A stretch of DNA of 64,000 bases from Raillietiella orientalis (taxonomy: Eukaryota), in contig JAYWIR010000031.1 in NCBI GenBank assembly GCA_036172245.1, forward strand, positions 1,798,001-1,862,000, written 5' to 3'. Numbering within the stretch: position 1 is the first letter of the stretch; each line of letters starts with the position of its first letter. Position numbers and translations under genes: made by a program. This document shows, one piece after another, positions 9,990-63,960 of this stretch. The notes beneath the pieces are model-generated. The model was not told the origin of the DNA, made no database searches, and saw only the letters and a program-made list of their open reading frames with translations.

Positions 9990-12510
9990 TCACCTGGTCA
10001 CGCCGGGGCGTTTATTAATAAACACTTTACATTTGTGGTACGAGGCCCCGCTACGGCCTGTTCATGGGACCTGCCAGGAAGCCGGTTCGCAGACCGGCTT
10101 GACTCTCCTCGGCAGCGGAGGGGATAAGGGGTAAAACAAAAAGAAAAATAAATCAAACAAACAAAAAAAAAGAAACTATTTGGGGGGGCGGGAAGGGATC
10201 ACAGTCCGCTCGAGGAAGAGACCATCCTTTCCAGGATGCCCTCGAGGTCCCTCGTCATAGCTCCCAGATGGGACCATCCGATCGCGATTCTCAGGTAGCG
10301 ACCCGCGTGTACGATGGCGTCCCTATCGCTGCTTCTTCTGTTTGCTGCGCTCCACGCAGCCACAATCCCTCGGAGGCAGCAGAGCGCTGCCAGGGTTGAG
10401 GCTGGTGGCAGGGCGTCTCGCACGAAGAGGAGTCTCCCAACGTCTCTGGGGGTACTGCCGACCGGCATACGGAGGGTCGTAGCAAAACGTTCTCACAAGG
10501 GCTGGAGGGCAGCGCAGTCCACTAACAGATGTGGGAGGGATTCCTTCTCCCCGCACACTGCACAGTTCTGTCCCACGTTCCCCAACGTCCAGTGGTGGCA
10601 GCACGCGTTGCAGGGAAGACCCCAGTGCAACAACAGCAGAGCCGTTTCCAGTCACTTGAGGGGGAGGGTGGATGGGTCTCTAAATAACGGGGGCCACTTT
10701 AGGTCATCCAGCGGGATACCCAGCAGCTCGCCCCATCTCCGTATTCCGCGCGGGAGAACGCTTGGGGTCGCGGCGTATGCCAGTTCCCTCATGGTCCACC
10801 CACTTAATTCCTTCTCCTTGCCCGCTATCCGGCAGGTGACTTGCCATCTCAGCTTCCGGCAGTTTTGAAGAGCCCTTCTTAGGAAGGGCAGCGCCGTGGT
10901 CAGTGGGGTCGTCTCCGCCCACGTGCTTCTGGCAGGACACTCGATCATGTTCCGCAGCGTGCAGCGGGTGTAGATGCCGGGACGCAGGCGGTTGCAGGAT
11001 TTTCCACTAGGCTGGTTTAACTTCGCCCACGTGCCAATTGTTTCTTCCAGCCATGCGCTGGAGTTGGCGGGGCTGCAGGCCATCCATCCGTTCTCCTTTG
11101 CCAAGGTGGCCATGCGTCCCAGGAGAAGGCTGCATCTTCTTATTTTCCTGCGGGGACACAGGCGAGGAGGCGAGCTGGAACGCACCAAGGGGTGCTCCAC
11201 ATCTTCGCCACGATGGCTAGGGTACGCCACCGCAGCTGTGTTTCCACGGGCTCCAGCATCAGGACGCTAAGACCTCCGTCCCGACGTGGAGCGCACAAGT
11301 CCTGCAGAGGCACACGAGGCCTCTTGCTGCCCCATAGGACGATGCACAGGAGGTCCTTCGTTCTCTTTTTCATCTCACGGGGTACGGGGCAAACAAAAAG
11401 CAGGGGGCGAAGGAGGGGGGGCGCAAACGCGTTCCACACCGCGGCCCGTAACGGCAAGTGAAACTTGCCTTCCAGCAACGGGCCGATAGCCGACTCCACT
11501 TTCTGGAGACGACCTGACCAGGCTTCTGACTGGCAGGAATCCCCCAACGAAACGCCAAGGTACTTTAAGTACTTTTCCTTGGGGATCCTTAGGCGGATCC
11601 AGTCAGGTCGTCCTGCCCACGTTGCACCAACCGCAACTAGCGACGACTTCGTCCTGTTCACCCGTAGTCCTGTCCCACGGCTCAACAAGTCGAAGAAATC
11701 CTCGACTGCGGCAGCTGGGGCGGACATGGTCAACATCAGCAGAAGATCATCAGCATACGCCGACACGGTCGGCGTACCGGGGCACGAGCTTGGCAGGGCA
11801 GCCAATGTCACCCTGTATGCTCTCAGCACCAGTTCGAAATAGGTGCTAAAGAGCAGGGGACTCAGGCTGTTGCCCTGCCGGATGGCGCGCCTTACCGGCA
11901 CGCCGAACACGTTTTGTCCTCTGAAAGAAACGGTGATTATCGCATTGCGCCAGCAGGAGCGCAGGTAGGCCGTGAAGGCGGCCGGGAAGCCCATGCGATC
12001 CAGGAGCTCCAGAAGAAGTTCCTGGACCACGCAATCGAACACTTTATGCAGATCGACTGCAATCGCTAGAGCCCCCTTTCCTCCCCGGTCGTCCCCTACC
12101 TGCCCCTCTGGCGCCCCAAATCAGGGTTGCCGACATTCCGTTTTTCCTTGTTTTCTTCCCGTTGCACATGGAACCATGTGCTGGAGAACAGGTTCGCTTC
12201 CATGCTTCGCCCGGGAACAGCGTACGTCTGTTCCGGGCTGACGAAGCTGTCCTCCACCTGTTCCAGCCGCGCAGCCCACAGTCCAGCCAACAACTTGGTG
12301 TCCGCGATCACAATCGCGATCTGACCCCAGTTGCTTAATTTTCGGAGGTCTCCTCCCTTAGGAAGGAGCCTCACCCTGGCTGACCGAAACGAGGTGGGAA
12401 CATTGCCTTCGTCTCGGATCAGCCGTGTCAACTCGAGCACCAGGGGAGTCAGCTCTGCGGCGAAGCACTGAAAGAACTCCGCCGGCAGGCCGTCCTCCCC
12501 TGGCTCCAAA
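9990..12510 (-). mobile_element. L1/Tx1-clade non-LTR retrotransposon, 5'-truncated within RT; pseudogenised ORF2 (RT + zf-RVT) and 3' UTR
   Basis: ORFs 12096-12509 (PGEDGLPAEFF, LLPKGGDLRKLSNW), 11140-12042 (IRQGNSLSPLLF, YADD at 11746-11757, KYLGV, DGGL), 10652-11230 and 10199-10468. CAVCGEKESLPHLLVDC zinc finger. Frameshifts and stops present. Confidence 0.95.
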
Positions 12511-20093: not shown

Positions 20094-20999
20094 TCCCAAA
20101 AAGAGTTGGTACAGCAGCAAAAATTCGCAGTGCTAAGCGCAAGGCTGTGGACTCGTTGATCCATTGGAGAGAGTGTCCACATTGTGGTTGCTTACGATCC
20201 ATGTCAGTGTAGGGAGTAGTCCGCTAACAAGCGATGAGGGGGAAGGGGATTTTTCCAATCATATTCTCCAATGTCGAAAAGGTGCATCCACGCTCGTTTC
20301 CAGAGAGCCTCGATGCGCCCAAAAATGCAGCTACTGGCATTCTCTAGGCGAATCTTTGTATTCTCAGTTTTCGTCGTCAAGGTGACAAGACTACCGATCG
20401 TTGCCTCGATGTCTGCAGACACCTGGAACCCTTCATACCCGCAGGACCTCGATTCCATTCATCTGGTTCTCTGCAAGGGGCTGTGATCCTAGGGAGGCAG
20501 CTCGTCAATCACCAGCGGCCCAGTCCATGGTCCCAGGACACCTTGCCCTTCTCCTTTCTGATGTTCTCTGCTTGACTCCGAAGGATCTTCAGCCAACAAC
20601 TCTTTGCCCTAACGCGCCTCCGTCTCGTACCCTCTGTGGCCACTGCGGGATCTCCGAAGGGGACAGACCACGTCCAATAGCATAGCTCTGGAGCGCCCTG
20701 GAGACCACATCGGAGCTCCGGAAGTCGGTCCCATTGTATCGACTGGCTGTAGGACACCAGCTCTCAATGCAAACTCCCCGATGAACTCCTTCCATTTCGC
20801 CCCAATGCCCTCTTTCCTACCCCCTGCCCTTACCTCCTCCCGTCACTCTCGGAAACGCGCCGCGCTCCAGCGTTCCGTCAGTAACGAGGAAGCCGGGCGG
20901 AATGGCAATCCTCACTGAGGAAGATGCAACGCTTCTTGTTTACTACCCTTAGGGCATTTTCTTGCTCACCTACTTCTGTTGTTGCGCTTCCGGGTAGCC

Positions 21000-28500: not shown

Positions 28501-31175
28501 TAAGGGAGATCAGGGTGAGGGTTGTTGACCAAATGAGATGGTCATTGCTTTTTCAAGTTGTGTTTGTATAAACTCATGTAAACTCATTGGGCTCATTTTA
28601 CGCCCCTGGAACGTCATGAGTTCTCAGATGAGCGTTTGTCGCCATTGGATTCTGAGCAAATTTCCGCATCTCATTCCCAATCCTTTTTATCACAGCGATT
28701 AACTCATCGTCCTTTCGCGGGAGGGCTTCCAAGTTACCTATCTCCTCAGTACAGACATCTGCCCAAGTACAGAGCGCATTGTGATGAAATCTCAATCCCT
28801 ATATTTCTGTGCTTATTTAATGATCCAAGGGATGTAGCAGTTTCAGTTACGATAAAGTGGTTGATGATACGTTCTATAAAGAGCACCTCCGAGTCTGTAC
28901 GAGTAATTTGTTTTTTAAATTTCACCGGAGGGTGTTTTGCCAAAGTTCCATTATTCATTTAGGAAGCATGAAGTTTCGATATTCGGTGCTTCTGGAAGGT
29001 GAAATTTTTTGTTTTTCTTCGTTTCTCTTTCGTGGGTCCTCCCTCTCGAGGCACGCGCCGTTTGTTCGGCCCTTCAAAGATAACGATAAGGAACTGAACT
29101 CGCTGGAAAAGTGATCTTTCCGTTTTCATTTCACTCTGCTTAAACAACCGTTGGGGGGAGTCAACTGAAGACATTCACGCTCAAAGAAGAATTCTTACCT
29201 CCACGCACTGTGTCTGAGGATTCCGAAATCCAAAGCAACCAAAGGACAAAGTGGCGAGTGCATCACCGTTTCTACGGCGACTTGAGGAATTTCAAGATTC
29301 ACCACCACTTCTTAAAAGGTCCACGAATTGTCAGCCCGTACCGGCTTTCTGGTGTGGTTTTTTGAAGTGAGAACTTCCGATTTCAGATTATCTTTATATA
29401 CTTCTTTGATCATTGAAGAATTTTTTTTTAAAAAAAAAAAAAATCGCATCCATCTTGCGGTTCTCATTCGCGGATACAGAGTCTGCACCACGGATAATCT
29501 GTTGATTCTAGAATCGATGTTTTGTTCCCAAACCAGTTCTTTCAGTAATTTACTTTCTCAATCGAATGCTTTATCCATGAGAGGGATTTGTTTGGAACTC
29601 ATCCCGAATTCGTGTCTTGGCATTTCGGTGCAGTCATTTTTTTTTTTTCTTTTTAACTCAAATTAAAGTTGGATATTTTGATAGGTTCCGCGAACAACTC
29701 ATTGAGTTCTCGGGAGGTCCTTATGCAGCAAGTAGTCCTTTGGCATAAGCGGCATGCCATCAAAACATACCCGCTTTCACCACGTCCTACACCTTGTGGC
29801 AATGACAGCTCTTCGGCAGAGCAAACTTTCCCTGAAATCATTCATCGCTCTTCAAAGCACATCTTTAAGATCGCCGCCGCTTCGTTCTCTGAGGCTCTCT
29901 GTTGTGTACTTCAGCATCTGCAGCAAAATGGAAATCTTCTCCACCGACCACGCGTAAAAGCCCAATTCGGTGAATGAAGGCGCATTCTACACTTCCACTT
30001 GGTGAGAAAACCTGGGGGTTTCCCAAACGCATGCTTTCCATTTATCCTTATCAAGGAATTTGGGATACGGTATTTCAAGGCCGTATTCAAAAACACTGTA
30101 GACTCTTATTTGGTTGACTTTAAACTGGTTCAAAAGGTCGCTGGCTTGAGCAGCGGGGTTGCTCAAAAGTGAGTCTATTCTCTCGGAGGATTCTTATATA
30201 TTCAAATGTTTTCACACATCAAGCATCAGTTCCCTGTCGTTTTGCATTGTAGTTCGTATAACAGCTCCCGGAAGCGCCAATAACATCTGCTTGAGAAACC
30301 ATCTTACTCAAATTTGACTTCAGTGAGAATCTCCCATCAACCCTTTTTCCATCGTTTTCCAGAGGGACTGAGGTGATCACGTATTGAGGGTCGCACGTTT
30401 CCGAGAGTGCTGTTCCTTCTTTTTCTTATGATGAGAGAAACGCCATGCCATCTTCACGAAAATCCAGCGCTGTCTTGTTCACTGGTGCAGTGTCCCAGTG
30501 TGTTGGTGAAATCTCGCGTCCGGCTGTAACTGGGTATGTCCTCTGCTCTTCCCACGATTGCGGCATTTCCAGGATTGCATTCCTGATGACGCCCATGTTC
30601 TAGACCTTAGGACATGGACATCAAAGTATTCTGGAACCATCACACCGACTGTGCAAACATTCACGGTGCTGTACACATCATTTTTCCACTCACTCGAAGA
30701 ACTGTCTGCTTCCCAAGTGGTTTCGAAAGGCCGTAAGAATGAGATCCGGAACGTGCTGCTGTGCTTGTCTTGGGCAGCATCTTCTGCCCGAAGGATAAAT
30801 AAAGATCAGTTTGCAGCTCTTGATGTACTATATCCACCTCGGCGCCTAGACAGACGACGACGCTTCGCAGAAATTGCAAACAATCCACCCTTTCTCTTAC
30901 GAGAACGACCAGCGCAAGGTCACGCCATTCCGCTGCTTGACAGCGTACTGACCACCTAAGTCAATCCCCCGCCCTTTTTTAGTCTGGCTGGTGGGCACGC
31001 CCACCCGACTTTATCAGCCTTCCACGAGGTCGGGTTACGCCACGCACTTCCCACGTGGACAGCAACAGCCTGTTCCGCATTCCAAAGTCTTCCACGATTG
31101 CGGACAAAAACCAGCCACTAAAAACATCACTTACAACATATCGGAATTTCCCAAGGTTTTGCGTTGTCAGCGAAA

Positions 31176-31208
31176 TGCAATCTTGGTAATACTGTTTACC
31201 AGATTGCA
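31176..31208 (-). promoter_or_regulatory. CRESS-DNA virus rolling-circle origin: stem-loop with nonanucleotide CAGTATTAC
   Basis: TGCAATCT-T-GGTAA...TTACC-AGATTGCA inverted repeat. GTAATACTG at 31186-31194 is the reverse complement of CAGTATTAC (NANTATTAC). Lies about 90 bp upstream of a Rep ORF. Confidence 0.88.
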
Positions 31209-31215
31209 ATTTCTG

Positions 31216-31236
31216 CGCAGTTACGCAGTATAAATA
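31216..31236 (+). promoter_or_regulatory. Putative iterons (CGCAGT x2) and Rep TATA box (TATAAATA)
   Basis: CGCAGT at 31216-31221 and 31224-31229, then TATAAATA at 31229-31236, between the origin and Rep. Confidence 0.6.
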
Positions 31237-31293
31237 CAACTACACCGACAACCAAAGCCAAGTCTTACTTACTGTGAATTTCTGACCACAAAG

Positions 31294-31775
31294 GTGCCAT
31301 ACGCACTTTTTTTCAACTGGTGCTTCACATTGTGTAACTTCACAGATCAAGAACTGAAAGAAATCAAAGACTGGTGCCGTGCCAACTGTTTCTTCGCCTG
31401 CATAGGCAAAGAAGTCGCAAAAACAGGGACGCCACACCTACAAGGTTACTTTCAACGGAAAGAACCAAGAACACTGCCGGGACTCAAACGGAAAACTTTT
31501 CAAAAAACTCATCTGGAAAAAGCAAGAGGTTCACCACAGAGCAACTTGAGGTACTGCACTGAAGAGGATAAACAAGCATGGACCTCCGGAAAAATCCACG
31601 ACACAAACGAACCTTCAGACTACCAAGACCTGGTGAGCCAAAAACCGTTAACGACAAGATCAACTCCATATCTCCACTAGATACTTCAACTAATCGAAGA
31701 CGGTGCAGATGAACGTTTCATTTTAAAAAATCATACAAAGTTTTATTCCGTAAACATAAACTTTGTAAAGGAATG
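31294..31775 (+). pseudogene. rep: Endogenous CRESS-DNA virus (circo/cyclovirus-like) replication-associated protein, HUH endonuclease domain, truncated
   Basis: Motif I WCFTLCN (31318-31338), GKEV...TGTPHLQGY (motif II at 31432), HLEKARGS, motif III NLRYCTE (Tyr at 31552). In-frame stop at 31678-31680 with read-through ILQLIEDGADERFILKNH. No ATG start and no SF3 helicase downstream. Confidence 0.93.
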
Positions 31776-32979
31776 CTTCCGTCTCACACGCAGCTGCAAT
31801 GTCACGAGCTCATCAAAACCCCCCAGCTAGCAAACTCTGCTTCCTTCCTTTCAAGAAGGAAGCTGCTTTGTCCATCACGTGGCTGCTCAGATGGTGCTAG
31901 TCTGGAAATCAGACATTTATCTAAGTCGCTTTGGAATTCCAAAGGTTCCGTAGTAGTTGTATGATTCCGCAGTTCCTGTAATCGCTTAATGATTCCACAG
32001 CCTTGTCCCTGAAAAAGCTGGAAGGAAAAAAGACGAAGCTATTTGGAAAAAAAAAAAGGAAGACTTTCTTCGTTATCCTCTGCAAATATTCCTCCCTCTT
32101 TTCTGGTTGCTCCATTTTCGAGTAGTGGACTCAGTACCCGATCCAATCTCCAGAAGCGGGAGCAACTATTCATGCTTTGGTGCCAGCGCGATCCTTTCAA
32201 GGAGAAACATTCAAAGTTGCTGGCGTCTGCTGCCCAGACAGCAGTGCAGATGGCACTGGGTCTCATCGTTCCTCCTCCGGAAAAAGGAAAAAAAAAAAAA
32301 AGTTCTTTCTTTCTTGTACAGAATCTTTCATTTTTGAATTCTTTCTTTTTTTTTAGAAAAAAACCTTCTGTCATTTATCTGAGCACGAGTGGTGAGGATT
32401 CGCTAGAAACGCCGCCTGACTCTTAATGCCAAAGAACATCGGCCAGCTCTCGGACTACTCTCACCTAGTACTCGAAATTTTCAGCTAAATGAGCAGGAAG
32501 CTGTGATTCAGAATGCTGAGCTACTTCGACTAGCTGGAAGTTGTGGCAAAGTTTCCAAATGCGTTTGCGTCGTTCGCCTGCGGGTTCCCCGGCGTTGCCC
32601 CCGAACACAGGAGGTTGTGGCCTGGAAACGCAAAATCACTGAGCTGTCATCTGCCCATTTTTGATCTTCGCTTGAGGATTCTATGGCGCACATCCCACAC
32701 CTCGAGAAGGACAAATCGAAACGGCTGGATCCCTAATGTTTCCTGTTGCCGAGCTTGTGGCGCTGTACCAAGCTCGCAGCGACCCCAACTGCAGTCGCTT
32801 TCCTACCCATTTCATCTTGTTTCAAGATCCTCCCCTTTTCCGTCCACGGATGACTCTAGTTCGCGCCTTCTTTGCAAATAAAAGCAATCGAGGCACATGA
32901 AAAGTCGATTTTTAGGTGGATCGCTTGTTGTTTTGAGTAGCTGAGATGACATTTTGTTCGGTCAACACCGAACGCTGTT

Positions 32980-33480
32980 TCATTTTCTCAAGGCAATACA
33001 AAAGCGCTATTTTATGGAGCAACCAATGGAGGCGCTCAAAAGCGCAGCAGAGAGACTCAAGCAGCAAGCTCGGCCAAAGTTGTGCACGCTTCCTGTGCTG
33101 GTCATGCTTTCCTGTGCGTGTCGTGTCACACCTGTTGGTAAGCAGACAAGAGGTGCAAAAACTCGAGAAAATCTCCTGCGAGCGAAGATGATTAACAGAG
33201 GAGACGCCGATGAGCTGAATAAACTAGGAGGGCATTTGTACTTCCATCTGTGGAAAGATGGAGGAATCTGGAAAACAAGAAAAGCAAGGACTCGACAATC
33301 GCATCTGTGGACAGAGAGATGTTTGTGGTGCTCGAAGAATAGAGAGGATCTGTCCATTATTTGCATCAAGCCGTCTTCCTCGAGCAAAGATCTTTACTGA
33401 ATCTAGCACCAGATGATTAGCAGACTGCAAAACTGCTGGAGCATCTGCCAAAACTTCGACTTAGATCTATTAGCAATGAC
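32980..33480 (+). pseudogene. Possible NACHT/NLR-type NTPase gene relic (helical region)
   Basis: LCTLPVLVMLSC resembles the NACHT LCxxPLxxxMxC motif; downstream sequence is disrupted. Confidence 0.25.
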
Positions 33481-36369
33481 GGCCATAGAAATGTCCAAGA
33501 GGTAAATTCCCTGTTGTCTGATCTCAAAGAAATGGTAACCGATAAACGGCGAAGATGTATGGGAGGAAACGATGATCCCGTTTCTGCTCACAGATCGCTT
33601 CCTCTGTTTTCTTTCCGGTAGCGACGCCGTGAGTAGTTTCGATCCTTCCACCGGATCCTATCGATACCATGGTATTGGTGCATTCCTTGGCAAAGCTTTG
33701 TCGGCAAGAGGTAGAATCCGCCATTTTTTTCTCCCTGACTCCTTATTGGATGGGACGCATGTCGAAAAAATCTCCAGATCCACTGAGGTCCTGGATACAC
33801 TTAATTGGTAGGTGTTTCCACAACCAGAATCGATAGACCGTACATTCACACGTCAGAGACTGATGATGCAACCTCCGCTACCGCGCCGCTTCCACCCTGA
33901 AATGCCCCATTTCCCCGGTTCCCCCTTCACGAGGAACCAGCAATCCCGTGTCACTTCTCTTCACAGTACACTTCTTTTCCTTGAAGACAGCCTTCCAGTC
34001 TGGGGCGAACATAGGGAAGCGAGAGACTCGTGGGCACGCCTGGTCAACATCTCGTCTGCTGAGAACTCCTTGGACAAATGAAGCGTCGGTCTTGCAGGTG
34101 CAGGAGGAGTACTGATGGGGGGCAAGGGGGAGGCTCTGCGAAGTCCCGCTGTGTTAATGCTTATCATTCTTGTAAGTATCTACCCAGTATCAATGGCACA
34201 TGTTGTATGTGAACGATAGGTGGTCAAACATCCGGAAGAATGCAAAAGCCTGTACCTTCGAAGATGGATAAGTCGGAATAACAGCCGAAAGATTCGCGTT
34301 TGACTCAGGAGGCGCAGATTCACCACTGGGATGAGCTCGCTGCAGCGCAAGGAAGCATGGCATCCCCTCGCCCGAAAGCATCCGGACCAAGGGAGGATCC
34401 TTGACTCGCGCTGCCTCAATTGCGACGCGCGAGCTTCCAGCTTCCTTGCTGACGGGAATGACCACCGGACATCCGAAGACAGAGACCCCGGAATAGCAGC
34501 CGAGGGAGTTTGCACGCGATGGACGCAGGAGACACCGCGGAGGTCGGCAAGCAGATCAGGGGAGACCCCTTCCCTGCTTCCGATCCTTGCACGCCAGGGA
34601 TCTCCTGCTCGCTCCAGCTCGCTCGCCGTTGCGCTGTTCGGATAACCGTGCGGGCCGGCGGCCTCCAGCAGGAAGCGGCGACCTCCGGCTCGAACGTGCA
34701 GGGGGCGCTCTTCACGGGAAGGGGGCATCCTGAATGGTGGCGGGCGAGGTTCCAGCTCACCCGCTGAGGGTGCGTGACCACCTGGTCCGTTGCATCGTGG
34801 GAGGGAGCTGGTGGTCCCCAGGGACAGCCGATACAGGGAGGGGGGCCAAGTCAGGACTCTGGCAGCCGGACCTGGTGCCCCTCCAGGACGAAGGTCGGGT
34901 CGGGTCATCGTGCTAGACGCTGCCTGCGTACGCGAGCTCGCGGCAACAGCGTCAGAGGAAACGCAGCGAAGGGAAGGCACTGCGTGTCTGGGTGGAGGTC
35001 CACTCTTCCCGACAGAGGACCTCGGTTCGGAAGCTGGCGGCTGGGTCCTCAGGAAGCGAAGAACGACGGGACGCCTGGAGATCTCGACGGTCCTCGCGCA
35101 CGCGGGCAAAAAAAACCGAAAAGGAGGACGGTAGCGTACGCCCGCATCCAATGCAGCCGGGTCAGGGGATTTACCGGGGCACATCCTGGGGTCAGCGACC
35201 ATGGTGAACGACTGCATGCGTGCTTTTGATAGCGGAAGAAAAGAATGATGGAAACTGTGGAGGATTCCCTCCTCCTCCTCAACGTTTATCCTATGCAACT
35301 GAACAGCACAGAGATCCGTTTTCCAAAGAAACGGGAGATTTACGATGATTCATCCATCGCATGAGTAGTGGCAACGTTGCTTCTTCGTCTCACTGATCGC
35401 CATCATAGCTGACAGTAATGGCTTTCCATTTCCCGTCTTCCCCGAAGAACAGATCCGCGTGCGTGCACGTGCGGCAGTTCGACTCCAAGCCGATTTTCCC
35501 TCCCATCAGTCAGAAAGGACGCTGGCATCGTCCATCAGGGAGCGCGCTGACGTGAGTGGGGCGAGGTGAGCTCAAGCAGCAGCAGTTCCTCGCCTGTGAA
35601 ACTCAAGGGACACTGCTGTTCTTCATCCCCCAAAGACATCTCTAGAGATGTTTCTGAGATTCTTGCAAACGGTGGCGTTCTCGAGCGTCTCTTGCGGAAA
35701 GATTCCAGGTCACGGCCTGAGCTGCCCTCTCGCTCCACCTCGGAAGTTGCTAGCGCTTGCTGGAAGGTGCATGCATCGCGAGAATCTTCCTTCTCCTCGC
35801 GAGGAGCATTCCCGCAGTCTCAGGTTCGGATCTGAAGAGGAACGTTTCCCTGCTTTTTTCATGCCGTCCTCCAGGTCCAGCCGGGATTGTCTTTCACTCT
35901 TGCGTGATGATCCACGAAACGGTTCTCCGCGGTACTGAAGGAGGAGACGTTGGACGCGGCGTGCAGTTTCCTCCGGTCGGAGATTCCATACGCGACGAGC
36001 GCACACGCCTCCTACCGGACGCGCTCTCGCAAATTCCCGTTCGCTACCTTCGTGATAAACCCTACTTCCAGAAGTTTCTCGGATTGGCTTTCAGTGGGAA
36101 TGGCGGTTTCTGGAAACGTCCGAAGCACAAGTGGGAGCGGCGACCTTCCGCTTCCCTCTCTGCTCCGCGCTCTTCCCTATCTCGTCGTTCCGTGCTCACC
36201 GCCCGCGTAATTTTCAAACTTCCAGCCTCGCGCGCGTGGATTCTTTCGAAGACTGCATGTCTCGAGAAGGCAGCGTTCCTCCTTCCTCCCGTATCCGGCT
36301 TTCTGTCTCCGCGGCCTGCATGCCATCTTAAGGGGTCACTGATCCCCTTTGCCTTACCATTAACTTATT

Positions 36370-37688: not shown

Positions 37689-39050
37689 CGCCAGTCATGC
37701 CATGGCGTTTCTTTTATAAAAATAAAAATCACTTGGGAACACGTCGATTCCCAAACGACGACAACAAAAGCCAAAGGGAAGGGTCCACCGGCACGCAGGA
37801 CGGAATAACGGATATCCGAAGAGGGAGAAGGGATCAGGGGACAACACACAAAAAATAAACTCTGTGGGATTGGACAGGGATCTTAGAGTTCGCTCCGAGG
37901 GGTACTGGGATAAAAACAAACACACCGGGGAAGTTGCAGAAAGAATGGAGATAGGGAATGAGAAAAAAATTAGAACAAATAAAAGGAAGCAGGGGATAAG
38001 GATCACCGGTGTCCGCCGTTCCTAACTTCCCTGAAAGCGGCGCTGGATGCCGGCGATCTCCTCCTTCGCCCCTTCTTCCAAATGAGGCCACCTCGCAGCC
38101 GTCCTCATGTAGGCGGCTGTCATTCTGGTGACTTCCCTAACTGCGTGGGCGTCTCGAGTAATGGTGGGCCGTGGCAATGGCACGGATTCAACCCATGGTT
38201 GAGATCACTGCTCCCGTCAGTAGTCCTCCCGGAGCGAAGAACCGTCGCAGCAGGTCGCGGGCGGTGCCCTCCTGGTGCACGAGTGCTGCTGAGTGCTGCC
38301 AGCCTCCTCCATTGTTCCTGGAGAGCACCGCAGTCCAGAAGCAGGTGCGACGGGATCGAATCCGTCGCCCCGTACCTGGCACCATTCGGGGACGCGACCC
38401 CTCCGGAAACTCGGTACCACCGCTTGTTGCACGGGAACCTCCAGGGAAAGAAGAGCAGCACACGCCCTGTTTCCGGGAGAGCGGCAACGCAGAAGTGTCT
38501 CGACATTGGAGAGGATTCGGGGATACACTGAAGAGCTCGCTCCACCGAAGGAGTCAGTTCGCGAAAGCACGCGGAGTAGCGGCATCCACCAGCTCGCGTG
38601 TCTTCCATCCGCCAAGGAGTTCGGTGCTTCCCGCGATGGTGCAGAAAAACTCCCACCTCGCCGGTCAGCTACTGTCGTCTCTTGTCCTGAGGGCAGACAG
38701 CGCTGCGGCGAAGGGTGTGGTGGCCAGGGTCGACCACTTCGCCACGCCCCGCATCCCCACTTCCAGAGGTGGTGGCACCAGATGTCGCAGGGGGAAAAGT
38801 TCCTCCGGGCGTAATCCCCGGAATGCAGCTCGGGACTCATCGGCCTCCTGCCGCCAAGCATTGGAGTTCGTCGGGCGGCAGGAGACCCGCAGCTGGACTT
38901 CCACTAGTGAGGCGATCTGCCTCAGGAGGAAGCCGAATCCCCGCATCTTGTAGTGGGTGCCCGGCAGCGGCGAGAGAGGTCCTTCGCTGCCATCGCTTCT
39001 CCGCAGGGTGACGCGTGCAGACGCACGCAACGGGGCTTCTAGAAAGAAGT
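37689..39050 (-). mobile_element. L1/Tx1 LINE 3' fragment
   Basis: SHLLLDCGALQEQWRRLA and AYMRTAARWPHL in minus frames; T-rich 3' UTR. 38179-38989 is an inverted near-identical copy of 49731-50541. Confidence 0.8.
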
Positions 39051-49730: not shown

Positions 49731-50832
49731 CAGCGAAGGACCTCTCTCGCCGCTGCCGGGCACCCACTACAAGATGCGGGGATTCGGCTTCCTCCTGAGG
49801 CAGATCGCCTCACTAGTGGAAGTCCAGCTGCGGGTCTCCTGCCGCCCGACGAACTCCAATGCTTGGCGGCAGGAGGCCGATGAGTCCCGAGCTGCATTCC
49901 GGGGATTACGCCCGGAGGAACTTTTCCCCCTGCGACATCTGGTGCCACCACCTCTGGAAGTGGGGATGCGGGGCGTGGCGAAGTGGTCGACCCTGGCCAC
50001 CACACCCTTCGCCGCAGCGCTGTCTGCCCTCAGGACAAGAGACGACAGTAGCTGACCGGCGAGGTGGGAGTTTTTCTGCACCATCGCGGGAAGCACCGAA
50101 CTCCTTGGCGGATGGAAGACACGCGAGCTGGTGGATGCCGCTACTCCGCGTGCTTTCGCGAACTGACTCCTTCGGTGGAGCGAGCTCTTCAGTGTATCCC
50201 CGAATCCTCTCCAATGTCGAGACACTTCTGCGTTGCCGCTCTCCCGGAAACAGGGCGTGTGCTGCTCTTCTTTCCCTGGAGGTTCCCGTGCAACAAGCGG
50301 TGGTACCGAGTTTCCGGAGGGGTCGCGTCCCCGAATGGTGCCAGGTACGGGGCGACGGATTCGATCCCGTCGCACCTGCTTCTGGACTGCGGTGCTCTCC
50401 AGGAACAATGGAGGAGGCTGGCAGCACTCAGCAGCACTCGTGCACCAGGAGGGCACCGCCCGCGACCTGCTGCGACGGTTCTTCGCTCCGGGAGGACTAC
50501 TGACGGGAGCAGTGATCTCAACCATGGGTTGGATCCGTGCCCAAAGGAGTTGCCAGGGAGATCGCCTCCATCCAGAGCCTCTTTTAAGAAGGAAGAAATG
50601 TCTCACGCCAAAGACCCCTGTCCCCACTCTCCTGTCTCCTTTTATTTATTCATTGTTTCCTCCCTCCGTTCCCTAGTTTTTGGAAACCGAACTACGTATT
50701 GGTGGTTATCCTGGGTGAATCTTTTTCTTGGCATTTCTTGTTTTTTTGAGGAGGTTCTTTTCTCTTCTTCCTTGTAGTTTATTCTTTTTTTTTTTTTTTT
50801 TCAACATAAATGTCCCGGCGTAACCGGGTTCC
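49731..50832 (+). mobile_element. L1/Tx1 LINE 3' fragment
   Basis: Inverted near-identical copy of 38179-38989, plus its own 3' UTR ending in CCCGG-CGTAA-CCGGG (50814-50828). Confidence 0.85.
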
Positions 50833-53229: not shown

Positions 53230-54008
53230 TGAAACCTGGTTTCTCGCTCCCGTTTCAGGCTTTCCTTTTCCTGCAAATTCAAGCACTTAAGAACTGCCTT
53301 TTGCCTGGAGGTCCACGGAGCACTTTAAGACTGTCCATGCCACCCTGGGATGCATGTCAACTCTTCAAAATAGGAGGCACCCAGGAGGGGACCACCCTAT
53401 AAATCCAGGAAGGGCACCGCGGAGAGGAAAGTCCATTCCTCTCACATTTGGGGAGAGCCCAGAAGGGAACCCTCCACTCTGGTTACCTCCGAAAGGAACC
53501 TCTTTTTCGTTCTCTCCGGAATGGCCACTCCATTATTTCTTCTCCCAAGGGAACCCGGAAAGGATCGGCTCCTGAAATTTCTTCTCGGGAGAGAACCCGC
53601 AATGCAACCCGCTCCTTGTTCCCTCCTCCTCTAAAGAAAACCCTGGAGGGACGCTTGCAAATTTCTGTGAAGGGCGCTCTTCGAAGGGAGCAGCACACTT
53701 CTTGACCCTCTGGAGAGAGAACCCCCTGAGGGAAGTGTCAACTAGCTCCAAGGCAAGAGATGGAGGGTCCCCCAATAGCGGAGATGACTCCTTTTCACAA
53801 TCGGCGGCAAACCCCGGGGGCAACCCACTCCTTTAATTCCTGAAAGGACCCCTAAGGGTCAACTTCCAGTCCCGGCCACTCAACGGGGGCATCCGGTTTT
53901 CGGTTTCCACCGGTGCTGCACCCGAAGCCCGTGGGCCAACCAACGTCATCTTGCGGGAGGAACTCGAAACCCACGACGCTCCACCTCCCCATTTCTCGGC
54001 CTTGATCC
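53230..54008 (-). repeat. SINE-like repeat lacking its tRNA head, fused to a LINE 3' end
   Basis: Body matches the other copies from just after the B-box. Confidence 0.75.
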
Positions 54009-54016
54009 TTTATTTT

Positions 54017-54661
54017 CACCCGGTCACGCCGTGGAGTTCCTTGGAAAAAAAATATTTACAAAAAAACAAATCAAATAAGATACAAAATGCCCGTCTTCGT
54101 AGTGGCTTTACATGATCACGAAGAAGGGAAAAACCGCCTCGGAGGCGCTGCTTCGCGCGAACAGCTCCATCGGTGGGGCCCGCACACGAGGCGTGGGGGG
54201 AGGGGTAAACTAAAACAAAAGAAAAAAACAAACACAACAGTTCAGTTCGAAATTTGTGTTGGAAAGACCACAGATTTCTTCCTGGAGTCCACAGCATCCT
54301 CTGCAGGATGTCGACAACTTCCTCCTTCTGTTGGCCATCTTATCGTCTTCCTCGTGAAGGAGCACACAATTGCCATGACCTCCACTCGCCTCTTTTTGCG
54401 CAACCGCGATCCCACGAGGGCAGCACGGAGCTACAAGAGAAGCTGCAGGCGACATCCAGTCGCGAGAGAAGAGGCGCCATCCATAGGGAGTGGAAGGACC
54501 GCAGCGGAGCGTTCCCAGCACTCAGGAGAGCAACGACACAATCCAGTAAGAGGTGCGGGAACGTTTCCCGTTCTCCTCACCTGGCACACTCTGGGGCTAC
54601 GCTCCTCCTCGTTCACTGGTGGACTCGTGTGCTGCGTGGGATCACCCGGTGCAAGGACTGC
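54017..54661 (-). mobile_element. L1/Tx1 LINE 3' fragment
   Basis: Terminal CACCCGGTCACGCCG at 54017; zinc-finger region CARxGERETFPHL. 53822-54661 is near-identical to 62561-63400. Confidence 0.85.
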
Positions 54662-57584
54662 CATGTTGCTCCTTCATGAAGAAGGCGACAAGATGGCCAC
54701 ATCTCTGCCAACAAAAGAAGGAAGTTGCATCGATCCTTTGCGAGTATTCGAACCCGTAGTGCTTAGGTCACACGGCCTCCGGCTCAGACTGGTTTTCCTG
54801 AGGAAATTTCCTACCGTTCTTTCCGATCCTTCAAACAGCGTCGAGACGATCAAGAGAATCCCAGTCACCTCGACGAACCGAGGATTTGGGTGGCGGAGGG
54901 AGAGTTTCGCGCTGCTGGAGGCGTAGATGCGAAAAGAAGAGCCGGGTTGACCGACGTGCACGAAAAGAACGTTTCAGATTCTATCTTAATTTGATGATTC
55001 TGTGGGAGGAGAATCGCCTGCACCACTTAATCCTTCAACGGAAGCTGAGAATTTCGTCACTGGAGCTTCCGAGAGAGAATCTGAGAACGTTATCTCCTCC
55101 ATGAAATCTGGAGGAAATCTGTAGAGTAGAGAAATCTACTTCCTCACTTGCCATTCCAAAGAAGCCGTGCACACGTGATGAGATGAAGCAACTTTCTGCG
55201 ACGACGCGATCTGCCTATCAGAAAGCTATGCATTTTCGACTGATCCCGGGGTGTCCACCGGGATGTGGAGAATCCAGAACTCTTTCCCATCACTCAAACT
55301 AAGGATGAGCACTTGACCTTCGTTTTCCAAACATGGATGGGTCCAAACATGGGAAGACAATTCAAAGGCAACAGAAGGAAAAGGACGTTGTATTTATTCT
55401 CTCGTGGTAACCCGCTAAAGAAGGATCGTTTGAGAACATAAGCTTCCTGATGACTGCAATTACTGCAACCTTTATGTGAAACAAGTGGAAGGGCTACAGA
55501 TTCTGTAGACGGCACGGGAAGAATTGCCTTTTAAGGGACATTTAGATCGAAAATCATTTGGAAATGCTTCCTTGAAAAGAAACACCAATACGTTTTCTCG
55601 GTGCCTCTTCAGCATTCTTTTCTATGATCCCTATCAATGGAATTACCGAAACCCTCGAGTGCTTTTTGAATGCGATTGCTTTGGAGAATCCATTCTTCCT
55701 CTTCATACGAAGCTCAGCATGCTTAGGATCCACTCCTTTGCCAGCTATGGTTATTATTCTCAGTAAGGTTGAGTTGCTGCCAGATCAAAGGAGCAGAAGG
55801 ACCTCCGTTCCGTGCAGGATATCTTGGAATTGAATCTTTAAAATGAAGAAATGTCGAACAGACAGCTTTCCCAGATGAAACTCGTGAGGACAGAAAAGCA
55901 CACGGACTGAAGGCCAAGAAGGTGCCCACATTTTTTAAAAGACGGCACTTCTTTGCGTCGAGAGACCCCAGACACAGAAGGAACCATTGCTTAACGAAGG
56001 CTCCTCAACAGACAAAAATAAACTTAGGAATGACACGAAAAGGCAGAAAGATGGAAAACACCGAATGATTATTTTTTATACTCATTTAACCCTTTTCTCC
56101 TCCCCCCCCCTACTGCCTGGGTTGGGGTATTTTTGAGGGGAGGGACTAAAAGTTGTGCCCCGAACCTCTGTATCCGTACAGCTCACCGCCCACGCACATA
56201 TATGGGAAAATTTCCGTTCAACAAGTTTTGAGGGATGGACACCAGCTACCCAGATGTCAGTTTCCCCAGTGCTGCAGAGAGGTACTCAGTGCTTTCAACC
56301 CACAAGTTCAAACGGACACCGAACCGGGAACCACATCCAAACTGTCCATGGAGCTGATCATTTCGGCGCTATGACGACTGCTTCTCATATCACCTCCTAG
56401 CGGAAGCAGCGCACGTTCGATCTTTCTTGCACTGATGCGCTTCTTATAACGACTACAGAGCGAGGTTTCCCGGTCGTGGAAGACGCTTTTCAAACCAGAG
56501 GCATAGGAACAGTTGCAGCACGTCTGCTTTCAAAACGCACTTCCAATATATCAAAGTTTTCCGAGACAGCAGCATGATTTAAACTCTGACCAAAGTTCAG
56601 GAGAGAATAAGTTTGCATGAATTATTCTCAGAAATCTTCATTCCCTGATTTCCCTTAGTAATGTAAACCAAAACTCATCAGGAACAGATTTCGAGAAGCA
56701 CCACCCTGCTTGTGTGGAGCATTCGACTCCGACCTAAAACAAGGTGGTCCGACGCACTTCTATAACTCAAATACGAAAGGTGTTTCTCGCCGAAAAATCT
56801 TCGCCATGGTGATAGCGTCTCCAGAAGGAGTTGTCTACGCTGATGCTGGAAGACGAAAAGCTCATCCGATCTTCTTAAAGGAGTTTGGGGAACAGCTTCC
56901 CCTCCCCCCCTTCCTCTTGGGTCTTCCCCTAGCTTCGCTTCTCAATTGAAAAATCTTGGGGTAAATGGACTCTTTAGCGATTCCAGAATCTCCCTTCCGT
57001 CATCCCTAGGCAACCTGTCCAATATTTTCTAAGGCCGAGATGTACTAGAGGATTTTGTTCACTTCTTCACGTTTCCTTTGGGCCCTCACACTTCATTAGC
57101 CAGCTGCAACCAGCTGATGACACGAGGGAGTGGAGGAGGCGTTTTCACAAGCGTTCGATTCACTGCCTAAGTCACCACGATCCAAAAGTGACTTATTAGA
57201 TTTACACGCTGGTATCTGGAATTTCTGAATTGCTGAACCATCCTTTGGGGGAGGACCTGCATGCGCACGTGCACGGTTCACGTGATTCCTAGATGTCGTG
57301 ATGTCTTTCTGTGAGAGACTTCGATTACGCCTTCCAAATCCGTGCATTTCAGTTACCACAGATACGACCGAAGTCCGTACAGTTCAACTTTCAGCATGAT
57401 TTTCAAGTTATCTTGCCTCTCCGTTGTGAGGACACGCTAAACTGCCCTTTGAGGCGAGTTAAGTTGATACATCTGGGAGCATCGCTTCCAGTGGAGCTGC
57501 AAGTGCAGCCGAACTCTGTTCCTCTTCCATGAGTAACATAAGAGACCCCCCCACTTTCTAAATCTCACCGTGATCTCATCATGA

Positions 57585-61999: not shown

Positions 62000-62747
62000 G
62001 ATGATGGAAATCTTTCAGGACTCTTCTGTTTTGCTGTTTTCCTTCCAGCTTTTTTTTTTTTGGTTCGCTAAGTACTCAAGAACTGTTCGCCTAGGAGCTC
62101 ACGAGACCCTTTAACTCGAGGTCCATGCTACCCGAGGCTGCGTGTAACTTTTCCAGTTAAAGGACAGCCCCTTAGGGATCACTCTATAAATCCAGGAAGG
62201 CGCCGGAGGAAGGAATGCGTTCTTCTTACGGTTGGAAGAGAACCCCGAAGGCAACCCTCGTCATGGTTGTCTCCGAAGGGAACCCCGTAGAGAACCTCTT
62301 CCTTATTACCTCCAGGGGGATCGCTCCCCATTTTTCCTACAAAGGAAATCCGGAAAGAATTCTCTCCTGGAATTTCTGATCCACAGGATCCCCGCAAGGG
62401 AATTTCTACTTATTTTTTCCTCCCGTGAAGAGAACCCTAAAGGGACGCTTACAAATTTCTCTAAAAGACGCTTCCTCGAAGGGAGCAGAGCACTTGACAC
62501 TCTGGAGAGGTATCAATCCACTCTGGAGGCATCCATGGTAGTAGATGGACAGTCAAAGAGAACCCACTCCTTTAATTCCTGAAAGGACCCCTAAGGGTCA
62601 ACTTCCAGTCCCGGCCACTCAACGGGGGCATCCGGTTTTCGGTTTCCACCGGTGCTGCACCCGAAGCCCGTGGGCCAACCAACGTCATCTTGCGGGAGGA
62701 ACTCGAAACCCACGACGCTCCACCTCCCCATTTCTCGGCCTTGATCC
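62000..62747 (-). repeat. SINE-like repeat lacking its tRNA head
   Basis: Body and T-run tail correspond to the reverse complement of 58271-58880. Confidence 0.75.
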
Positions 62748-62755
62748 TTTATTTT

Positions 62756-63960
62756 CACCCGGTCACGCCGTGGAGTTCCTTGGAAAAAAAATATTTACAA
62801 AAAAACAAATCAAATAAGATACAAAATGCCCGTCTTCGTAGTGGCTTTACATGATCACGAAGAAGGGAAAAACCGCCTCGGAGGCGCTGCTTCGCGCGAA
62901 CAGCTCCATCGGTGGGGCCCGCACACGAGGCGTGGGGGGAGGGGTAAACTAAAACAAAAGAAAAAAACAAACACAACAGTTCAGTTCGAAATTTGTGTTG
63001 GAAAGACCACAGATTTCTTCCTGGAGTCCACAGCATCCTCTGCAGGATGTCGACAACTTCCTCCTTCTGTTGGCCATCTTATCGTCTTCCTCGTGAAGGA
63101 GCACACAATTGCCATGACCTCCACTCGCCTCTTTTTGCGCAACCGCGATCCCACGAGGGCAGCACGGAGCTACAAGAGAAGCTGCAGGCGACATCCAGTC
63201 GCGAGAGAAGAGGCGCCATCCATAGGGAGTGGAAGGACCGCAGCGGAGCGTTCCCAGCACTCAGGAGAGCAACGACACAATCCAGTAAGAGGTGCGGGAA
63301 CGTTTCCCGTTCTCCTCACCTGGCACACTCTGGGGCTACGCTCCTCCTCGTCCACTGGTGGACTCGTGTGCTGCGTGGGATCACCCGGTGCAAGGACTGC
63401 GATGCCCAGTCCTGTCCCTTCAGGGGAAGCGTGAAGCCGTCCAGAAACACTGGCAGAGTCTGTACCTCTTCTAAGGGAATATCCAGAAGCTCCGTCGAGC
63501 GGAGAATTCCTCTGGGGTGGGCGGCGGGGGTGCATGCATCACCCAGTTGAATCGCCGTCCAGCATTCCAGCTGCCTCTTCTCGCCCGCGATCTCGCAGGC
63601 TACTTTCATCTCGCGAGGCCATCGCTACGTCCACCTCGTTGGATGGTGATGAGCGTGGCTGCAAGTGGGGTGCCTTGCGCTCAGGTGGCCTTCCTTGGGT
63701 AGTCCATGATTTCCTGCAGCGAGCGTAGTTGGAGGATCGCAGGCATGGCGATGGCTCGTGCTGTTTCTTTTCGCCCACGCCTGAACAGCTCCCTGTTTCC
63801 AGGCACTGCGGTTGGCGTGGCTGCGCGAAATCCACCTATCAACCTGGACCAAGGCAGCCATTTTCCGGTGTTGGTACTCTCATCGGGGCAGCTCTCGCTG
63901 GCCATGCACGAGGAACGTACCGAGTTCCTCGCCGCCGGCTGCTCGCTTGGCGAAGAGTTT
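62756..63960 (-). mobile_element. L1/Tx1 LINE 3' portion
   Basis: ELLDIPLEEVQTLPVFLDGFTLPLKGQD, SAWKQGAVQAWA; terminal motif at 62756. Confidence 0.85.

Follow-up and report, generated by a model that had tools for sequence, protein, structure and literature searches.

For the thousands of CRESS viruses that are known from metagenomes only, endogenous CRESS elements provide some of the few hard clues to the host (PMC6069186, PMC7493932). Dennis et al. (2018, J Virol, PMC6069186) described CVe in invertebrate genomes. According to that report, all the new elements were rep-derived, and such Rep-derived CRESS elements, found across invertebrates, often had long, poorly resolved branches and no detectable capsid. 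Kinsella et al. (2020, Nat Commun, PMC7493932) reported whole CRESS genomes integrated in Entamoeba and Giardia, which assigned hosts to orphan virus families. What distinguishes cycloviruses from circoviruses, according to PMC8471302, is an origin located on the strand that encodes the capsid, rep being on the complementary one.

Here, we describe a dead CRESS-DNA virus fragment of about 1 kb, made of the origin and of the endonuclease half of Rep, very probably embedded in repeat-bearing eukaryotic DNA. It lies midway in the 64-kb stretch of DNA that was analysed as a whole (hereafter, the window), which contains no N; non-viral DNA flanks the element over 30 kb in both directions. This is a known kind of viral fossil, and the locus is a good new example rather than a new type. 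Like the invertebrate CVe of PMC6069186, it is a Rep-derived fragment in host DNA, with a long branch among unclassified CRESS Reps and a capsid that is undetectable by similarity. Unlike those elements as that study presents them, the window copy still has its origin hairpin, nonanucleotide included, and possibly the start of the capsid gene. The twig-ant CVe was validated by PCR (PMC6069186), whereas the insertion in the window is known from the assembly alone. As in the Entamoeba and Giardia integrations, the CRESS DNA lies in a eukaryotic chromosome and what is retained goes beyond rep. However, those integrations are described as whole genomes having 73-84% nucleotide identity to exogenous viruses and small-RNA evidence (PMC7493932), whereas the window contains half a genome and no close relative has been sampled. 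With Cyclovirus (Circoviridae; PMC8471302), the element shares (C/T)AGTATTAC on the strand opposite to rep and a hairpin between diverging rep and candidate cap starts. It differs from Cyclovirus by an identity of at most 43% to a named cyclovirus and by hexamers placed on the rep side of the hairpin. Of the ambisense genome of 1.7-2.1 kb with a capsid gene expected in this genus, the fragment shows a candidate Arg-rich capsid start. The added value over known elements is modest and consists of the retained origin of cyclovirus polarity and of the distance to any sampled relative; knowledge of how such elements arise is unchanged by this locus.

The rep part of the element comprises the following features.

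31234 to 31677, plus strand: HUH endonuclease domain of Rep, 148 open codons with no Met (Pfam, PDB chains, phmmer and our own Rep profile)
31321 to 31338, plus strand: motif I, CFTLCN
31432 to 31449, plus strand: motif II, PHLQGY
31552 to 31563, plus strand: motif III, YCTE
31678 to 31680, plus strand: in-frame TAG (direct reading)
31681 to 31830, plus strand: remnant of the endonuclease-helicase linker, in the same frame, closing at TAG 31828-31830; tblastn alignments run through the stop

From stop to stop, the Rep frame covers 31234-31680 on the plus strand (148 aa) and is followed, beyond TAG 31678-31680, by 49 further codons in frame. The read-through product (P0001) has 199 residues, with stops written as X. 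Residues 28-111 matched the Viral_Rep family (PF02407) over profile positions 3-82 of 82, with an E-value of 1.4e-14 and a score of 54.5 bits that exceeds the family cut-off of 26. Our own profile, built from 188 full-length Reps, found the frame at E 4.2e-44 over its positions 29-137 of 328. Nine distinct sequences were retrieved from the PDB at E<=1; eight are Rep or Replicase chains (E 3.6e-12 to 9.4e-5) and the ninth is an unrelated chain (E 0.91). In motif II, H68 and Q70 are common to all 128 aligned relatives, and the catalytic Tyr of motif III is common to 127 of them. Motif I is FTLNN-like and motif II contains HLQG, with a single departure, a Cys in a motif I column occupied by Asn in 126 of the 128 relatives. 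In motif III, Glu is found where 127 relatives have Lys and one has Arg, so that the YxxK pattern is absent from the window copy. We read this Glu as probable decay in a former family member and not as the sign of a different family. No Met occurs within the 199-residue read-through, and no ATG is present between 31209 and 31320 in any plus-strand frame. The base composition at 31234-31830 is A 0.36, C 0.25, G 0.18 and T 0.21.

Using 160 relatives as tblastn queries, 159 alignments were located at 31234-31857 on the plus strand. They end at 31794-31857, corresponding to residues 144-191 of the relatives, just before Walker A. The one remaining alignment was weak (20643-20780, E 0.006). No SF3 helicase and no second piece of Rep was found in the 64-kb window, either by tblastn or with the Rep profile on the six-frame translation, where the next-best matches elsewhere had E-values of 0.22 and 8.1. 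The gene is therefore cut off in the linker, the remnant of which (31681-31830) gave no profile match by itself. An earlier reading made from the letters alone (hereafter, the sequence-only reading) had proposed HUH motifs I, II and III in an A/C-rich island, a lost start codon, YCTE in place of YCxK, a premature stop and a truncation before the helicase; each of these points was recovered here. Because the copy has no start codon, departs from its relatives in motifs I and III, contains an in-frame stop and lacks the helicase, it cannot start rolling-circle replication. The present copy is dead and can encode no active Rep. A domesticated Rep gene was rejected on account of the absent start codon and the in-frame stop. 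The present value of the element is that of a record of a past infection in the host lineage.

The relatives of the window Rep were searched for in two ways. A word-indexed search retained nine proteins among 36 candidates, 34-49% identical to the window Rep, 270-308 aa long and encoded on contigs of 1.1-2.6 kb; none of 119 longer candidates (350-2000 aa) scored. An exhaustive search gave 5290 proteins at E<=1e-3, 431 at E<=1e-10 and none at E<=1e-30, the best relative being P0011 (109 aa, 46% identity, E 2e-25). The sequence-only reading had considered a possibly undescribed virus, and this Rep indeed has no close relative, with 46-49% identity at best among 5.8 and 1.84 billion proteins. The relatives are full-length Reps, and their 78 IMG/VR loci are mostly about 2.0-2.3 kb long. 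The nearest named protein in phmmer searches was the Rep of Red mite associated cyclovirus 1 (43% identity), and a profile search added named circoviruses and cycloviruses. In a quick IQ-TREE analysis of 129 rows and 111 columns, which did not include reference Reps of other CRESS families, the window Rep was placed on a long end branch (1.08), within none of the starred clades and beside unnamed metagenomic Reps. In the free tree, it was outside a 32-row clade (support 85) containing all the named circo- and cycloviruses. A placement inside this clade was not rejected by the AU test (p-AU 0.787), and the tree obtained under this constraint was better than that of the quick free search. The tree itself resolves no family.

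Upstream of rep, the following features were identified.

30929 to 31175, no strand assigned: putative 5′ intergenic region separating the divergent starts of cap and rep, C-rich (C 0.33), with a non-host trinucleotide make-up
31176 to 31208, no strand assigned: bulged origin-type hairpin, with arms TGCAATCT[T]GG and CCAGATTGCA and loop TAATACTGTTTA
31186 to 31194, minus strand: nonanucleotide CAGTATTAC, rep being on the other strand
31216 to 31229, plus strand: two direct hexamers, CGCAGT-TA-CGCAGT, possible iterons
31229 to 31236, plus strand: TATAAATA, an octamer resembling a TATA box, located between hairpin and rep; its in-frame TAA marks the opening of the Rep frame

The DNA fold of the hairpin had an energy of -17.2 kcal/mol (z -5.15), and none of 200 shuffled sequences folded as well. 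The hairpin sits about 110 nt upstream of the Rep domain, and its AGTATTAC core occurs once in the window, both strands counted. A shuffle control for hairpins containing the core was limited to perfect stems and to loops of at most 16 nt; as the window hairpin is bulged, this control does not represent it and was not relied on. With CAGTATTAC read on the minus strand (31194-31186) and rep on the plus strand, the element has the strand arrangement given for cycloviruses in PMC8471302. When the genomes of the 78 IMG/VR relatives were oriented with rep on the plus strand, the nAGTATTAC hairpin was on the rep strand in 54, on the opposite strand in 19 and absent in five. One relative with the opposite-strand arrangement (L059) has a loop almost identical to that of the window. 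The 14-15-nt loop was the only match when region 30400-31320 was compared by blastn with the 78 genomes. Exact IMG/VR matches to a loop-plus-stem 16-mer, 35 in number, were discarded as chance, none being in a hairpin and none beside a Rep.

The CGCAGT hexamers could possibly be iterons. In 15 of the 19 relatives having the same polarity, tandem repeats are found on the other side of the hairpin, those of the window being on the rep side. Octamer TATAAATA occurs once in 64 kb and may have had a promoter role. A 14-mer, TTGCAATTTCTGCG, which spans the right stem arm and the adjoining spacer (31204-31217, plus strand), recurs inverted at 30879-30866 on the minus strand, inside the Arg-rich candidate capsid start. 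Taken as a 17-mer with one mismatch, such a repeat is expected about 0.04 times per 5-kb region by our estimate. This inverted copy may be a second Rep-binding site, or it may have arisen by chance. In several of the relatives with an opposite-strand nonanucleotide (L013, L024, L029, L073 and others), inspection of the flanks by eye showed no ATG immediately ahead of motif I, and the Rep frame seems to stay open in the direction of the hairpin.

On the other side of the intergenic region, a short minus-strand stretch may correspond to the beginning of the capsid gene.

30806 to 30928, minus strand: candidate 5′ end of a capsid gene (uncertain), with ATG 30928-30926, TGA 30922-30920, GRSRKRKGGLFAISAKRRRLSRRRGG encoded at 30919-30809 and TGA 30808-30806

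Its ATG is 247 nt from the hairpin and is followed, two codons on, by a TGA. Arg/Lys-rich 31-residue windows such as the one found here occur in three places only in all six frames of the 64 kb. When a profile of 38 putative capsids of relatives was searched against the window, the candidate capsid start was the best site, at N-terminal profile positions 4-33 (E 0.17). Thirteen relatives of the same polarity have a diverging non-Rep ORF, with starts 42-576 nt apart, and in 10 of the 13 ORFs the first 40 residues include 10 K/R or more. In the window, the rep and candidate cap starts are about 340-390 nt apart and 13 K/R are counted. Similarity searches were negative or not significant. Pfam gave no match for the candidate capsid. 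With phmmer against 301 ORFs of the relatives, the Arg-rich part reached a best E-value of 0.0025 and the body one of 0.026, neither being significant. Atlas recognition of the candidate capsid (1037, best score 0.78) yielded nothing significant. By tblastn with the 301 ORFs from the genomes of the 78 relatives, nothing outside rep was found below E 0.01 except overlaps antisense to rep. A match of the capsid-cluster-1 profile at 31406-31546 (E 1e-4) was rejected as an alternative frame over rep. Overall, position and composition are what speaks for a real capsid start, and we regard the question as about evenly balanced. Beyond TGA 30808-30806, 108 open codons follow on the minus strand down to 30482 (30482-30805). 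Their trinucleotide make-up is host-like, and this frame is probably host DNA.

The extent of the viral DNA was derived from composition and similarity. Throughout the window, foreign trinucleotide make-up is confined to about 30900-31850. The strand-symmetric trinucleotide KL of 600-nt windows starting at 30901-31201 is 0.09-0.107, the 90th percentile of the whole window being 0.088, and that of 30301-30900 is 0.025-0.036, which is host-like. The left end of the element is probably near 30850-30930, and the viral part stops at about 31830-31860. The endogenous viral element is thus likely to measure 0.9-1.0 kb, roughly from 30.85/30.93 to 31.83/31.86 kb of the window. Compared with the 31176 to 31775 given in the sequence-only reading, the element is longer, reaching at least 31830 and probably starting at 30850-30930.

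The surroundings are eukaryotic, gene-poor and repeat-bearing DNA. The window contains 311 stop-to-stop ORFs of at least 85 aa, two of which have Pfam matches (Rep and a reverse transcriptase); among the 310 ORFs besides Rep, the latter was the one match at E<=0.001.

11140 to 12120, minus strand: reverse transcriptase (PF00078, E 1.3e-14; Pfam)

Among solved structures, the nearest relatives of this reverse transcriptase are R2-type and LINE-1 ORF2 proteins, and it is thus taken as a non-LTR retrotransposon remnant; in the Atlas, the clusters nearest to it are eukaryotic, with Chordata and Arthropoda as the main sources. Comparison of the window with itself gave 28 repeat pairs, two near-identical and 26 at 64-79%. 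The latter point to old interspersed repeat families. The two near-identical pairs, a direct repeat of 844 nt (62561-63404 and 53822-54665, 99.8%) and an inverted repeat of 811 nt (49731-50541 and 38179-38989, 99.9%), are recent duplications or young transposon copies. None of the 28 pairs touches 29500-33500, so that the flanks of the element are unique in the window. The proposal that the fragment is embedded in non-viral, host-like DNA was upheld by the LINE-type reverse transcriptase, the diverged repeats and the lack of gene density. The description of the surroundings as TE-dense holds in part only: 28 repeat pairs and one reverse transcriptase are present, but no repeat lies within 29500-33500 and the reverse transcriptase is 19 kb away. 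No Rfam families or tRNAs were found in the window. An island rich in G+C (0.62-0.69) was observed at 34300-34900, under a minus-strand frame of 389 codons (34180-35349) without a Pfam match.

Within this one assembly, the element is contiguous with host sequence on both sides. In addition, its defects are those of a decaying insert and not those of a contaminating intact circle, and we therefore consider it as integrated within the assembly. The parent was very likely a circular Rep-encoding ssDNA virus of about 2 kb with cyclovirus-type polarity, and the inserted piece part of its double-stranded replicative form. Kept are the endonuclease domain and linker of rep (plus strand), the intergenic DNA 5′ of it that carries the origin hairpin and, probably, some 40 codons at the start of the candidate cap (minus strand). 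Lost are the part of rep for the helicase and the rest of cap, neighbours on the viral circle. As the kept parts are contiguous on the circle and the lost parts are too, end joining of a linear sub-genomic piece is the simplest route. The nonanucleotide is intact, internal and off the junctions, which also favours end joining over Rep-mediated joining. Entry would most likely have occurred by illegitimate end joining of a broken, linear, sub-genomic replicative-form molecule, not by Rep-mediated joining at the nick site.

Other explanations have to be weighed against integration of a viral fragment. An assembler could have joined a defective or sub-genomic virus molecule from the sample to host sequence, nothing being integrated. 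Neither junction is covered by independent reads: in one public DNA run (share 0.08), two contigs were 100% identical to the window, at positions 32141-32273 and 32317-32464, while the element and its junctions were covered by none. The same run contained a 151-nt contig with a depth of 4, as compared to 2 for the host-identical contigs, in which 35 nt are 85% like 31537-31571, the motif III region, and whose flanks differ from those of the window. Judging from its sequence, this contig appears to represent a further Rep relative, the sampled organism being the same or very closely related. Rep-bearing DNA would thus circulate in samples of this organism, which speaks for a false join. The decay is slight, with a single stop and zero frameshifts across about 600 nt, which fits a young insertion but would also suit a mis-joined read of a defective viral molecule. 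However, a contaminating virus is expected to be whole and intact, whereas this copy has no start codon, no helicase and no capsid body. It also departs from its relatives at two near-invariant positions of the catalytic motifs (Asn in 126 and Lys in 127 of 128), and its site is in the middle of a contiguous 64-kb stretch without N and with unique flanks. On this evidence, a false join is very unlikely. A Rep of a non-viral replicon, such as a bacterial pCRESS-type plasmid, an integrative element or a Helitron, is extremely improbable. The window shows no prokaryote-like gene density (311 ORFs of at least 85 aa for two Pfam matches) and carries a LINE-type reverse transcriptase, the nearest named relatives of the Rep are circoviruses and cycloviruses, and the nAGTATTAC hairpin with its divergent arrangement is typical of viral genomes of about 2 kb. 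Both the Helitron and the plasmid were rejected on these grounds.

An integrated viral fragment could, in addition, serve the host, either by giving rise to antiviral small RNAs (a memory of the piRNA or siRNA type) or as a transcribed non-coding exon. Such a use would be compatible with integration as proposed above. Small-RNA peaks are reported over CRESS-derived elements in Entamoeba (PMC7493932), the window is repeat-bearing and the TATA-like octamer is kept. Yet the immediate 4 kb contain no repeat common to the rest of the window, so that no cluster of transposon fragments is seen around the element, and its broken coding frame makes a function as a protein unlikely. We consider a host role unlikely for this locus. 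A more specific possibility, also rather doubtful, is that of a young insertion from an unsampled CRESS lineage of cyclovirus polarity that would include the metagenomic Reps P0011, P0026 and P0033, at a locus making small RNAs against exogenous relatives, the second Rep relative being a living virus or a sister insertion. If true, the insertion would pin the orphan lineage of P0011, P0026 and P0033 to this host.

For the integrated fragment in general, because the origin of replication is kept, the locus could link one host to a lineage of Reps, to an origin sequence and to a strand polarity, once this host is named and the junctions are confirmed. An animal host is plausible. The window has a GC content of 0.51, a CpG o/e ratio of 0.87 and a TpA o/e ratio of 0.48, and this CpG value argues against a CpG-depleted genome of the vertebrate type. 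In the run mentioned above, a depth of about 2 for 1482 million letters hints, as a rough inference, at a genome of several hundred Mb.
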